Below are positions 11-10,634 of a DNA stretch of 64,000 nt, in pieces. Numbering within the stretch: position 1 is the first letter of the stretch; each line of letters opens with the position of its first letter. The translations under genes were made by a program, and so were the position numbers. The stretch comes from Thermoplasmatota archaeon (GTDB lineage: Archaea > Thermoplasmatota > E2 > JACPAO01 > JAHFTW01). The notes beneath the pieces are model-generated. The model worked only from the letters and a program-made list of their open reading frames with translations, searched no databases and was not told the origin of the DNA. Location: positions 64,001 through 128,000 of the forward strand of contig JBFIHX010000003.1 in assembly GCA_041601615.1 (NCBI GenBank). The letters run 5' to 3'.

Positions 11-445
11 ATGAGCCGCCTGATGCAACCGGACGACGCAAACGTCTACGGCAACATCCATGGTGGCGCCATTCTGCGCTACATCGACGAAACAGCCGCC
101 GTCGCCGCCTGGCGCCACGCCCGTGTTCCCAAGGTCGTCACCGCAAGCTTTGAGCGCATGTCCTTCAAGAAACCGGTTTTCGTAGGCGACATTCTCCACT
201 GCCACGCCACCGTGCGCCACACCGGCCGCACCAGCATGATCATCGGCGTCCGCGTCGAAGCCGAAGAACCAAGCACCGGCGACACCCGCCACGTGGCCAG
301 CGCACACGTCACCTTCGTCGCCCTCGACAAAGCAGGCTCCCCAACGCCCACACCTGGAGTGTACGCCGAAACGCCGCAGGAAGAAGAGAAAATGGCCCGC
401 GCAAAGCGCGTCCACGAAGCAATCAAAGCGGCGCTTCGACCATAA
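11..445 (+). CDS. acyl-CoA thioesterase (hotdog fold)
   Basis: DAN.YGNIHGG..L..ID motif, F.KPV.VGD; start may lie at or before the window edge. Confidence 0.9.
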   Translation: MSRLMQPDDANVYGNIHGGAILRYIDETAAVAAWRHARVPKVVTASFERMSFKKPVFVGDILHCHATVRHTGRTSMIIGVRVEAEEPSTGDTRHVASAHVTFVALDKAGSPTPTPGVYAETPQEEEKMARAKRVHEAIKAALRP

Positions 446-543
446 TCAAACGAAATCCGGCTGGGGACGTTTGAAACATCTACAAAACATTCATGGCACA
501 CCGGCCAATGCCCATCTGTCGCCATTTCGCGACAGGTGAAACC

Positions 544-783
544 ATGAAACTACAGACCTACCTCCTGACCTCGCTGCTGCTCCTCTCCGTCATCGCATTC
601 GCTCCTGGCGCCTCCGCCGGACCCAACCAATGCGACAAAACGGTCGAGACCAACTGTGTCACCAACTACGAATGCAGGGCCTACTACCAAGGCCAATGCT
701 ACGCCTACACCGCCGACCACTGCCTCGCCTGGGCCGTCGCGGTGTGCGTCTACGATCTGCGCTACTACCTCGAATCCGCGTAG
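544..783 (+). CDS. small secreted six-cysteine peptide (family A, copy 1)
   Basis: AGGTGA RBS before ATG 544; signal peptide ending PGASA; C-x7-C-x5-C-x7-C-x7-C-x7-C. Confidence 0.8.
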   Translation: MKLQTYLLTSLLLLSVIAFAPGASAGPNQCDKTVETNCVTNYECRAYYQGQCYAYTADHCLAWAVAVCVYDLRYYLESA

Positions 784-962
784 GCGCATCGGATCATCTA
801 GCGCCCCTCGGGGTCCAATGAATTGGCATACTTGCAGGTAAAACAACCCGCTGCATGTTCATTTATTAGATTCCACGGGCGCTATAATGAACTGAACGGT
901 TAAAAGAAACAACTAAGTTGCGCATGCCAATCGATGCTTGGCCATTGTGGCCAGTGATCAAC

Positions 963-1199
963 ATGAAGACAACCCTACTGCTTCTTGCAACCGCCCTTCT
1001 TCTGACTCCGATGGTGTCGGCCGGAACCGGCGACGCCGCAGAAACATCGCTCCAATCCGCTCCCAACGAATGCGACGGCCTCGTCGACGTATTCTGCATC
1101 GAAACCGAGTGTACCCACTGGTACGAGGGCCAATGCGTCTGGTTCGACTGGCAAGCCTGCTACGTCTGGGTGAACGGACTCTGCGTCTACATCGGATAA
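963..1199 (+). CDS. small secreted six-cysteine peptide (family A, copy 2)
   Basis: GTGATC RBS; MKTTLLLLA signal peptide; C-x7-C-x4-C-x7-C-x7-C-x7-C. Confidence 0.8.
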   Translation: MKTTLLLLATALLLTPMVSAGTGDAAETSLQSAPNECDGLVDVFCIETECTHWYEGQCVWFDWQACYVWVNGLCVYIG

Positions 1200-1237
1200 T
1201 CTAGGCAACGCCCGCCACAAATCCAAGGAGAGCATCC

Positions 1238-1501
1238 ATGATCCACAAACCTGTACCCACCAAGAATCTGCGTCGAAACGCACTCACCTGCCTCGCAGCA
1301 CTCGCCCTCATCGCGGTCGCCACCATCCCCGGTGTCGCCGCCAACCACGAAAGCCAACTCTGCGGAGGCGACGTAGACCACGACTGCTACAGCAACTACC
1401 GCTGCAAGTACCAGTACGGCGACCACTGCACCGGCTGGACCTGGACCTACTGCCTTGTCTATGTCTCGGGCATCTGCCTCGGCTTTGAAATCGAACGCTA
1501 A
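1238..1501 (+). CDS. small secreted six-cysteine peptide (family A, copy 3)
   Basis: AGGAG RBS; hydrophobic signal ending PGVAA; C-x7-C-x5-C-x7-C-x7-C-x7-C. Confidence 0.8.
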   Translation: MIHKPVPTKNLRRNALTCLAALALIAVATIPGVAANHESQLCGGDVDHDCYSNYRCKYQYGDHCTGWTWTYCLVYVSGICLGFEIER

Positions 1502-1612
1502 CCCACCGGCGGGCAACAAGATTGCCCCAAAACCTCCCTCCTCGCTTCTTCCCGCCTTCACACCATCCTGGCGCAGCGTCGCCTTCTTGAAGCCGCCCCA
1601 AGTGCCGCCCCC

Positions 1613-3013
1613 ATGGACGAGACCCTGGGCACCATGGCCGGCCCGGAAACCCGCACCGAAGCCGACTCCATGGGCGAAATGGAAATTCCCATCGACGCCA
1701 AGTGGGGCGCCAGCACCCAACGCGCCGTGCAAAACTTCCCCATCAGCGGCCTCACCATGCCCGAGTCGTTCCTCCGCAGCCTCGGACTTGTCAAGTGGGC
1801 TGCTGCCCTTGCCAACAAGGACCTCGAAGTGCTAGACGCGGACCTCGCCGACGCCATCGCCGAAGCCGCATTCAGCATCTACGAAGGCGAACACATGGAA
1901 CACTTCCCCATCGACGTCTTCCAAACCGGCAGCGGCACCAGCACCAACATGAACGCCAATGAGGTCATCGCCAACCTCGCAAGCGGCATCCTCGGCCGCA
2001 ACGTCCACCCCAACGACGACGTCAACAAGGGCCAAAGCAGCAACGACGTCATCCCCACCGTGATGCACGTCGCCGCTGCGCTGGAAGCCAAGTACACCCT
2101 CATTTCCGCGCTCGAACACCTGCACGCCTGCCTCAAGCAGAAGCAAGAGGAATTCGACGACGTCGTAAAAATTGGCCGCACCCACCTCATGGACGCCGTC
2201 CCCGTCCGCCTCGGCCAAGAATTCGGTGGTTACGCCCGACAAATCGAACTCGGCATCAGTCGCATCGAAAGCTCTCTCGAAGGACTTCTCGAAATCGCCC
2301 AAGGTGGCACCGCAGTCGGCACCGGCCTCAATGCCCACCCCGAATTTGGAAGCAAGGTCGCCGAATACCTCTACCAAGCCACCAACCTCGAATTCAAGGA
2401 AGCCGAGGACCACTTTGAAGCCCAAGGCGGCCGCGACGCCTACGTCTTCCTGGCCGGCGCCATGGACACCGTCGCCGCCAGCATGATGAAGATCGCCAAC
2501 GACGTGCGCCTTCTAGGAAGTGGCCCCGCGTGTGGCCTCGGCGAACTGCAACTACCCAGCATCCAACCCGGCAGCAGCATCATGCCCGGCAAGGTCAACC
2601 CCGTCATCTGCGAAGCCGTCATCATGGCCGGCGCCCACGTCACCGGCAACAACACCGCCATCCGCATCGGCGGCCAATGGGGCCAACTCGAACTCAACGT
2701 TATGCTCCCCATGATGGCCCACAACGCCCTCGAAAACATCAACCTCCTAGCCGGCGCCGCCACCGTCTTCGTGGACAACTGCCTAGCCGGCACCACCGCC
2801 AACAAAGAAGCCGCCGAAGCCTACGTAGAAACCAGCATGAGCATGGCGACCGCGCTCAATCCACTCATCGGCTACGACAAGGCAGCGACCATCGCCAAGG
2901 CAAGCTGGAAGACCGGCCGCACCGTGCGCGAACTGGCCTACGAAATGTCCGGCCTCACCAAGGAACAGGTGGACGAGGCATTGGAGCCACGCAAGCAAAC
3001 CGGTCACAACTGA
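1613..3013 (+). CDS. fumC: fumarate hydratase class II
   Basis: GSSIMPGKVNP signature, QTGSGTSTNMN.NEV, GRTHLMDA. Confidence 0.95.
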   Translation: MDETLGTMAGPETRTEADSMGEMEIPIDAKWGASTQRAVQNFPISGLTMPESFLRSLGLVKWAAALANKDLEVLDADLADAIAEAAFSIYEGEHMEHFPIDVFQTGSGTSTNMNANEVIANLASGILGRNVHPNDDVNKGQSSNDVIPTVMHVAAALEAKYTLISALEHLHACLKQKQEEFDDVVKIGRTHLMDAVPVRLGQEFGGYARQIELGISRIESSLEGLLEIAQGGTAVGTGLNAHPEFGSKVAEYLYQATNLEFKEAEDHFEAQGGRDAYVFLAGAMDTVAASMMKIANDVRLLGSGPACGLGELQLPSIQPGSSIMPGKVNPVICEAVIMAGAHVTGNNTAIRIGGQWGQLELNVMLPMMAHNALENINLLAGAATVFVDNCLAGTTANKEAAEAYVETSMSMATALNPLIGYDKAATIAKASWKTGRTVRELAYEMSGLTKEQVDEALEPRKQTGHN

Positions 3014-10040: not shown

Positions 10041-10298
10041 ATGAAAACAACACTCCCCCTGCTGCTCCTTGCAGCTATGATGTTTGCACCCGTCGCCATG
10101 GCGGACGACGAAGGCAGCGGCGATTGCACCGGGGACGGGCTGGTTCCCGGCATTCGATGCATCACCATCGAAGCCCGGGACCACTGTACCGGAGGCGTCA
10201 TCTTGAGCCAATGCTACGGGTACACAATCGGGGATGCAATCGAGTTTACCTACTACAGCTGCGAAATCGTGTTCGGCGCCGGCAGCTGCCCCGTCTAA
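10041..10298 (+). CDS. small secreted six-cysteine peptide (family B, copy 1)
   Basis: GTGATC RBS; MKTTLPLLLLA signal ending AMA; six Cys, ends CEIVFGAGSCPV. Confidence 0.75.
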   Translation: MKTTLPLLLLAAMMFAPVAMADDEGSGDCTGDGLVPGIRCITIEARDHCTGGVILSQCYGYTIGDAIEFTYYSCEIVFGAGSCPV

Positions 10299-10397: not shown

Positions 10398-10634
10398 ATG
10401 CGAATCGTCGTCGCCCTGATGCTGCTCGTTCCCACCCTCGTGGCGGTCCCCTCGGTGCAGGCCAGTTGTGAAGGCCAAGTCGAAGACACCATTTGCCTCT
10501 ACGGAGCGCTGCAAAACAACCCATGCCAGGCCATCAACGTGTTTTGCCAAACCGCACGACTGCAATCCATCCTCGGCGGCTACATGGAACGCACCTGCGT
10601 GCGCGTCCTCGGCCCATCCTTCTGCTACCTCTAG
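10398..10634 (+). CDS. small secreted six-cysteine peptide (family B, copy 2)
   Basis: signal ending VQA; six Cys, ends CVRVLGPSFCYL. Confidence 0.75.
   Translation: MRIVVALMLLVPTLVAVPSVQASCEGQVEDTICLYGALQNNPCQAINVFCQTARLQSILGGYMERTCVRVLGPSFCYL

Follow-up and report, generated by a model that had tools for sequence, protein, structure and literature searches.

A tandem array of genes for predicted secreted six-cysteine mini-proteins in a marine Thermoplasmatota archaeon

The stretch of DNA analysed here, called the window below, comprises 64,000 nucleotides (positions 64,001 to 128,000 of contig JBFIHX010000003.1) from the genome of a Thermoplasmatota archaeon (GenBank assembly GCA_041601615.1). 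Near its left end lie three consecutive short genes, and it is well supported that they form an array of three paralogous, independently translated genes for exported mini-proteins. The evidence supports placing their products in a new, fast-evolving family within a known kind of protein, the secreted cysteine-rich mini-proteins; the family probably has a new small fold as well. An earlier reading of this DNA, which we call the original prediction, had proposed the three genes, and its choice of open reading frames and starts is retained:

544-783, plus strand: peptide gene 1, open reading frame of 79 amino acids, cysteine gaps 7-5-7-7-7
963-1199, plus strand: peptide gene 2, open reading frame of 78 amino acids, cysteine gaps 7-4-7-7-7
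1238-1501, plus strand: peptide gene 3, open reading frame of 87 amino acids, cysteine gaps 7-5-7-7-7

The peptides and their family

All three mature parts show the frame C-x7-C-x4/5-C-x7-C-x7-C-x7-C. The peptides are 30-38% identical overall, yet all six cysteines align without exception. Each N-terminus opens with a few polar residues, continues with a hydrophobic stretch and has a small-x-small site (ASA/G, VSA/G and VAA/N), judged by hand with the -3/-1 rule. The mature parts are small (52-58 residues, 6.0-6.5 kDa) and acidic (isoelectric points 4.0-4.9), and the grand average of hydropathy (GRAVY) of the peptides lies between -0.51 and 0.14. Aromatic residues (F+W+Y) make up 16-17% of the mature parts against about 6.6% in the open reading frames of at least 300 amino acids in the same genome, a rough background, and cysteine accounts for about 11% against 1.2%. 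Near-identical cysteine spacing, divergent residues between the cysteines, a signal peptide on each precursor and richness in aromatic residues had all been claimed by the original prediction, and all of them hold.

The signals of the three precursors look like those of the general secretory (Sec) pathway. In peptide 1 the signal takes up approximately codons 1-25 (544-618) and leaves a mature part of 54 amino acids, whose C-terminal tail contains the word D-x-R-Y-[YI] common to its relatives. Peptide 2 has a signal of approximately codons 1-20 and then a 16-amino-acid acidic linker before the six-cysteine domain. In peptide 3, whose mature part has about 52 amino acids, the N-region is longer and carries an RR pair. 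TatC is encoded in the genome; from sequence, export of peptide 3 by Sec or by the twin-arginine (Tat) pathway cannot be told apart.

A genome of the same genus (G001) holds three tandem six-cysteine copies, Ga, Gb and Gc, directly upstream of its fumarase gene. When its three mature parts were aligned with those of the window, no column but those of the six cysteines was invariant, and identity to peptide 1 was 27-45%. The most conserved member is peptide 2; its identity to the orthologue Ga is 54% for the whole precursor and 61% for the mature part. Gb, 11 nucleotides after Ga, is the positional counterpart of peptide 3. The closest relatives of peptide 1 are Gc (53% identity) and P0007 (47%), a metagenomic protein of 82 amino acids with gaps 7-5-7-7-9 and a C-terminal tail like that of peptide 1. 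By the same rule of thumb as above, the G001 copies and P0007 also have a hydrophobic core followed by a small-x-small site.

A profile of these six mature parts was run with hmmsearch against 1,835,955,588 representative proteins and gave nine hits at E<=0.001, six of which are real: two peptides of the window, the three G001 copies and P0007. Peptide 1 is absent; another member presumably stands for its cluster. The other three hits, P0008-P0010, were rejected as relatives; they are translated 24-base tandem repeats with a cysteine every 8 residues. All six real hits are 76-91 amino acids long, and the domain was not seen fused to an enzyme or an anchor. Homologue searches returned the three window proteins alone among 106 candidates with one alignment (A1), and with another (A4) seven among 2106 candidates, which to judge by their lengths and contig sizes are probably rows of the query. 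Neither peptide 2 as query against genome contigs nor a peptide-1-type alignment against metagenome contigs of the Joint Genome Institute (JGI) gave a further related locus. The nearest fumarase loci in public genomes, at 83-74% identity, belong to metagenome-assembled genomes (MAGs) of Thermoplasmatota or Thermoplasmata. In a single marine metagenome study, contigs of four runs reproduce the array region with no differing letters in the pieces listed, and one of these runs may be the source of the window. All four are DNA runs; no RNA run was listed for window positions 450-1650.

The three peptides have no match at or above cut-off in Pfam or NCBIfam (the highest Pfam score, 13.8 bits, falls short of the cut-off of 21.6), and none among PDB sequences at E<=10. 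In the literature searched, no account of such peptides in archaea came up, nor any of secreted peptides in uncultured marine Thermoplasmatota. Together with the lack of a fold match reported below, this upholds the view of the original prediction that the family is undescribed. The family was also predicted to be archaeal, which agrees with the nearest fumarase loci named above. Loss of the cysteine frame in relatives had been named as a refutation; the frame is kept in G001 and P0007.

The following features lie in and around the array; the two flanking genes are given as context, as the conserved edges of a variable gap:

11-445, plus strand: left flank, 4HBT-family thioesterase (Pfam PF03061, E=1.2e-20)
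535-539, plus strand: Shine-Dalgarno-like GGTGA before gene 1, a reading of the sequence
850-915, plus strand: intergenic stretch upstream of gene 2, rich in A+T and containing TATA-like words, a putative archaeal promoter region
954-959, plus strand: Shine-Dalgarno-like GTGATC before gene 2, a reading of the sequence
1226-1230, plus strand: Shine-Dalgarno-like AGGAG before gene 3, a reading of the sequence
1613-3013, plus strand: right flank, class II fumarase, fumC (Pfam Lyase_1, E=5.6e-94, and FumaraseC_C)

It could be objected that the three frames are chance open frames in G+C-rich intergenic DNA, the more so as the genes are known from the DNA sequence alone and many overlapping frames of comparable length lie on other frames here. 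Against this, the cysteine frame is kept across genomes at low overall identity and beside the same neighbouring gene. G+C content at the third codon position (GC3) is gene-like, 0.72-0.82 in the peptide genes compared with 0.74 in the thioesterase and 0.80 in the fumarase, and by GC3 minus GC2 the plus frame is the best of six for all three genes. Shine-Dalgarno-like words, complementary to the 3' end of 16S rRNA, stand 5-8 nucleotides upstream of each ATG; the GGTGA word also precedes Ga and Gc in G001. Shuffling points the same way: 12 of 1,000,000 shuffles of mature peptide 2 had a cysteine spacing within one residue in total of that of peptide 1. Moreover, peptide 2 is under purifying selection, as its rates below indicate. 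This evidence all but refutes the objection, and we regard chance frames as extremely improbable here.

A 181-amino-acid open frame on the minus strand (1187-1732) overlaps peptide 3 and the start of fumC; since the plus frame wins the GC3 test, we take it as a chance frame of G+C-rich DNA. Public gene calls (P0001 and P0002, 91 amino acids) begin at the ATGs at 508 and 924, upstream of 544 and 963. The latter starts are preferred because the same-genus orthologues have no in-frame upstream methionine.

The G+C content of the sequence windows between 751 and 1200 drops to 0.52-0.55, and the region preceding Ga in G001 is A+T-rich too, as is that before gene 2. Gene 3 starts 38 nucleotides after the end of gene 2. 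From this arrangement, genes 2 and 3 are probably co-transcribed while gene 1 stands alone.

Turnover of the locus and the wider superfamily

The genes on both sides of the array are well conserved. Orthologues of the thioesterase are 90% (G002), 85% (G001) and 67% (G023) identical, and the fumarase is 82% identical to the G001 copy. What lies between them varies. In one relative (L034, fumarase 81% identical) thioesterase and fumarase are adjacent, with no peptide. G002, of the same genus as the window's genome, has one divergent six-cysteine peptide in the gap, and in G001 the gap contains, besides the three peptides, a Kelch gene on the opposite strand. A relative's contig in run X2, whose flanks are about 85% identical to window positions 212-330 and 1623-1959, has 3593 letters in the gap compared with 1292 in the window. 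In G023, which belongs to another genus, a single family member is found on the other side of the thioesterase. The window and G001 share a unit made up of a peptide-2-type gene and, 38 or 11 nucleotides further on respectively, a very divergent partner (peptide 3 or Gb); a peptide-1-type gene stands alone in both, and the order of the two units differs. Comparison of these sequences provides good support for birth-and-death evolution, with copy number (0, 1 or 3) and sequence both turning over fast in the gap.

Upstream of the fumarase of a related MAG (L033, 477-2210, plus strand) we observed a gene for a signal-bearing protein of 577 amino acids with short acidic repeats, C-D-x-D-G-D-G...E-E-E-E-C. 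It looks like a protein with calcium-binding thrombospondin-type-3-like repeats.

Rates of non-synonymous (dN) and synonymous (dS) substitution were estimated between the window's genome and G001, with one pair per gene:

fumarase: dN 0.13, dS 0.64, dN/dS 0.21
thioesterase: dN 0.12, dS 0.81, dN/dS 0.15
peptide 2 and Ga, mature part: dN 0.26, dS 1.15, dN/dS 0.23
peptide 1 and Gc, mature part: dN 0.56, dS 0.77, dN/dS 0.73
peptide 3 and Gb, mature part: dN 0.80, dS 1.05, dN/dS 0.76

In the signal part of peptide 1 and Gc the ratio is 0.26. In amino acids the peptides have diverged 2-6 times as much as the flanking genes. Each ratio comes from two sequences, at a proportion of synonymous differences (pS) of up to 0.7. 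Fast replacement outside the cysteines is clear from these comparisons; positive selection is not proven.

A tree of 14 rows, from which the six last-placed rows of the alignment (A5) were left out and in which P0007 was used without its first 24 residues, contains only three supported pairs. One joins peptide 2 to Ga (88/90); the other two join G000_C7 to G001_C200 and G000_C1b to G002_C15, where G000 is the window's genome. The proposed orthology of peptides 1 and 3 comes from best identity, the common C-terminal tail and position, and not from the tree.

Beyond the core family, weak matches in the window's genome and its relatives proved to be additional small peptides with signals. When 20 mature parts from 10 genomes were aligned, cysteines 1, 2, 5 and 6 were invariant in all 20, and the middle pair shifts position or is absent; four-cysteine members lack C3 and C4 together. 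The first loop (C1-x7-C2) often reads C-[DGN]-G-x-[VI]-[DE]-x-x-C, and the last (C5-x7-C6) C-x-[VL]-[YWF]-[VA]...C. Two-domain tandem forms exist in G041 (contig C6, 148 amino acids) and G002 (contig C49, about 180 amino acids). A profile of mature parts matches 10 of the 197 genomes of the class, all of them among the 38 of the window's order and none among the 159 outside it, so that restriction of the superfamily to one order of marine Thermoplasmatota is well supported.

Four subfamilies have kept their flanking genes from species to species and are therefore inherited vertically. The neighbours of other members are mutually unrelated: multicopper oxidase, phenylalanyl-tRNA synthetase beta subunit, HMG-CoA reductase, a DUF72 protein, a thrombospondin-type-3-repeat protein, an M14 peptidase and a Kelch protein.

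Predicted fold and possible roles

Structures were predicted with AlphaFold2 for mature peptide 1 from 6 rows (best mean predicted local distance difference test score, pLDDT, 70.1; other four models 43-62) and for mature peptide 2 from 20 rows (best 74.6; five models 68-75). Both models have three antiparallel strands and no helix, with turns at two conserved glycines just before C4 and C6. Foldseek found no match in the PDB at E<=0.001 for either of them. The best hit of a VIA-align wide search (Z 3.0) was to strands of TFIIA, generic hairpin-like pieces, and the ESM Atlas gave no lead (best feature score 0.77, unnamed bacterial clusters). A two-copy complex prediction of mature peptide 2 scored 0.01 and gave no answer on self-association.

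Once its signal peptide is removed, each precursor would yield an acidic all-beta peptide of about 6 kDa with a fold locked by its six cysteines. Three disulfides are suggested by the invariant cysteines, by the predicted export and by a DsbA-like protein encoded in the genome. We infer a ladder, C1-C6, C2-C5 and C3-C4. The middle pair is present or absent together, which makes a C3-C4 bond probable; for the outer pairs, the identical x7 spacings fit an antiparallel ladder of C1-C6 and C2-C5. In the model of peptide 2, C2 and C5 would be in cross-strand register, by arithmetic from the strand limits. The DsbA-like protein is a membrane-anchored thioredoxin-fold protein (Pfam Thioredoxin_4) with a CSSC motif, encoded at 209849-210298 of contig C1 on the minus strand (locus L155). 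It could be an extracytoplasmic disulfide oxidoreductase, and its gene lies about 4 kb from an array of small cysteine-rich peptides (C1:204527-205865). No VKOR turned up in the window's genome (2.79 Mb in 30 contigs, completeness 93%).

What might such peptides be for? The suggestion that we rank first is that they are stand-alone peptides of extracellular antagonism. The peptides would be released from the cell as stable stand-alone effectors, and their variable, aromatic-rich loops and sheet face would act on other microbes. The target would perhaps be something that archaea lack, for example a component of the bacterial envelope. If so, immunity would be unnecessary, which would explain why no immunity gene is linked. 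We rank this suggestion first because the combination seen here, an exported stand-alone peptide on a rigid frame, with loops that vary, turnover in tandem and restriction to one lineage, is typical of proteins that act on other organisms. Even this preferred suggestion may well prove wrong.

Several points weigh against it. The peptides are known from sequence and predicted models alone, and the core family from two genomes and one metagenomic protein. They are anionic, unlike most membrane-active antimicrobial peptides. With dS near saturation (pS 0.48-0.59 in the mature parts) the dN/dS values are rough, none of them shows positive selection, and for peptide 2 and its orthologue (0.23) purifying selection is of the ordinary kind. 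Confidence in the models is moderate, and in that of peptide 1 C2 and C5 miss register by one residue. Finally, about 60 other small secreted cysteine-rich open reading frames in the same genome may point to a structural or envelope role.

This last figure comes from a census of the window's genome with a crude filter (open reading frames of at most 125 amino acids with a signal-like start and 4, 6 or 8 cysteines in the mature part, best of six frames by GC3). It returned 63 open reading frames, with about a dozen groups of 2-4 neighbours. At least five of the 63 are doubtful (four CxxC...CxxC membrane proteins and one poly-valine frame), and none of the ten sampled has a Pfam family at E<=0.01. 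Examples of the groups, by contig of the window's genome, are:

C1:369846-370864
C1:204527-205865
C2:108115-108762
C3:266602-267356
C5:182012-183151
C11:4793-5330

Two further tandem groups deserve mention in their own right. The window contains a second pair, at 10041-10298 (plus strand, 85 amino acids) and 10398-10634 (plus strand, 78 amino acids). Both are signal-bearing with six cysteines each, at gaps 10-8-8-15-8 and 8-9-6-16-8, a spacing unrelated to that of the three-gene array. On contig C2 (34415-35673, minus strand) four tandem genes encode precursors of 65-71 amino acids with a four-cysteine mature frame (gaps of 9-11-12, for instance). Their signals hardly differ from one another and resemble that of peptide 1, and one member, which was sampled, has no Pfam family. 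We considered a conotoxin-like design of conserved signal and hypervariable toxin and rejected it; similar signals head unrelated small secreted open reading frames genome-wide, and therefore look like the ordinary export signal of the organism.

A bolder possibility, which we regard as doubtful, is that the lineage carries a whole unrecognised arsenal for conflict with neighbouring microbes. About 60 genes for disulfide-rich secreted mini-proteins in 2.8 Mb, with a dozen tandem arrays and many unrelated cysteine frames, would make it up, and the array would be one birth-and-death locus of an order-specific superfamily with a new laddered beta-sheet fold.

The same census can be read quite differently, as a general extracellular building kit. 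The peptides would then be binding or structural mini-proteins whose conserved aromatic face, on the disulfide-locked sheet, sticks to polysaccharide, to a mineral or particle surface or to the cell's own surface layer, or which self-associate, for adhesion or matrix formation and not for killing. F+W+Y amounts to 13-17% of the mature part in all six core members, and three positions are aromatic throughout the core family (4 residues before C4, 3 after C4 and 3 after C5), the last of them also in most of the superfamily as aligned. The all-beta prediction would fit such a role, the two-domain forms would suit avidity, and no immunity gene would be required. The search results are less favourable to binding: in Pfam nothing of the carbohydrate-binding or adhesin kind matches at E<=1, the members found in the exhaustive search are all stand-alone, as described above, and there is no C-terminal anchor. 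Nor are the peptides hydrophobic overall, and fast divergence of the loops would be unusual for a constant ligand. On balance we find this role rather unlikely.

A fixed cysteine frame with variable loops in fast-evolving tandem paralogs would also be expected of secreted protease inhibitors, in which a rigid disulfide frame would show a variable reactive loop, after the manner of small inhibitor families of eukaryotes, and protect the cell or its secreted enzymes from foreign peptidases. One subfamily adjoins an M14 carboxypeptidase gene in two or three genomes, a weak hint in this direction. The core family has no peptidase gene as neighbour, though, and no inhibitor family is matched in Pfam, NCBIfam or the PDB sequences, and we consider inhibition improbable.

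The neighbourhood also bears on a fourth suggestion, that the peptides are ligands of cell-to-cell signalling sensed by a membrane receptor. Small size, export and stability would suit such ligands, and the loop differences among the paralogs could encode specificity. Pfam searches and the flanking genes revealed no modification, export or transporter, immunity, receptor or regulator gene near the array, and among the ten neighbouring genes at the loci of other members there is no RiPP enzyme family (enzymes for ribosomally synthesised and post-translationally modified peptides), receptor, kinase, regulator, transporter or immunity gene. Three co-located paralogs and many further families would moreover exceed the usual need of signalling. 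For these reasons we would give signalling little chance.

Whatever the function, antagonism or another, the scaffold is of interest in itself. It is compact, gene-encoded and unmodified, with about 50 residues and probably three disulfides. Because it tolerates almost any loop sequence, it is attractive as a stable peptide framework. Synthetic peptides would suffice for testing, so that culture of the organism is not needed. Turnover at a fixed locus also opens a view of the interactions of archaea with neighbours that cannot be cultured together with them, and if the census holds, with about 60 such genes per genome, it would change the picture of what these archaea export.

Comparison with known systems

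To our knowledge few archaeal secreted peptides are known: some halocins, the sulfolobicins and a handful of RiPPs. In RiPP systems a modifying enzyme, protease or transporter lies beside the precursor. This is not the case at the array, flanked by the 4HBT thioesterase and the class II fumarase, and the original prediction was right that no modification enzyme adjoins it. The archaeocin halocin C8 is, like the array peptides, a small cysteine-rich peptide secreted by an archaeon. Halocin C8 is reported to be cut from a Tat-exported precursor of 283 amino acids that also carries the immunity protein, and its gene stands beside regulator and ABC transporter genes (10.64898/2026.07.27.741052). 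Compared with this, the array precursors are much shorter (78-87 amino acids), with Sec-type-looking signals and without regulator or ABC transporter neighbours. The three peptides matched no NCBIfam family at E<=1, including the halocin C8 model TIGR04449 on the assumption that it is within NCBIfam.

Tachyplesin, protegrin and arenicin are strongly cationic, aromatic-rich antimicrobial beta-hairpin peptides of 17-21 residues with antiparallel strands and a disulfide ladder. The array peptides would resemble them in their aromatic-rich antiparallel strands and in the ladder proposed here; they differ in having 52-58 residues, an acidic character and a predicted third strand.

Among carbohydrate-binding domains, fungal CBM1 and hevein have about 35-45 residues, a small disulfide-stabilised antiparallel sheet and conserved exposed aromatics, and they are usually fused to enzymes. 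The small sheet and the conserved aromatics are shared with the array peptides. Unlike them, the array domain has no such Pfam match at E<=1, was not found attached to an enzyme, and has its conserved aromatics eight residues apart along one strand, which in our own reading is not a sugar-repeat spacing. Chaplins and hydrophobins are small secreted proteins that self-assemble and have a strongly hydrophobic mature part. The array peptides are likewise small, Sec-exported as far as their signals indicate, multi-copy and beta-rich with conserved cysteines, but their GRAVY values are not those of hydrophobic proteins and no such Pfam family is matched.

There is also a general likeness to the cysteine-rich families of eukaryotes, such as defensins, the NCR peptides (nodule-specific and rich in cysteine) and conotoxins, in which a signal and a short mature part with an even number of cysteines, variable loops, tandem paralogs and fast divergence go together. 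The array agrees with them in the signal, the fixed even cysteines (in all six core members and all 20 superfamily rows), the short mature part, the variable loops, the tandem paralogs and the fast divergence, and it is by the signal, the short mature part and the conserved even cysteines that we assign it to the secreted cysteine-rich mini-proteins. It departs from them in that there is no sequence match, nor a fold match in the searches above, the cysteine spacing is other, and the peptides are acidic and archaeal. Against the conotoxin family Toxin_8 in Pfam, peptide 3 alone gives a score, 13.8 bits (E=0.069), which is below the cut-off of 21.6; nothing comes up for peptides 1 and 2. For the fold of defensins (cysteine-stabilised alpha-beta) or knottins there is no Foldseek match, and the models, at moderate confidence, are without helix. 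If the doubtful possibility of an arsenal were correct, these archaea would have their own counterpart of the defensin-like and effector-like peptide repertoires of plants, fungi and animals.

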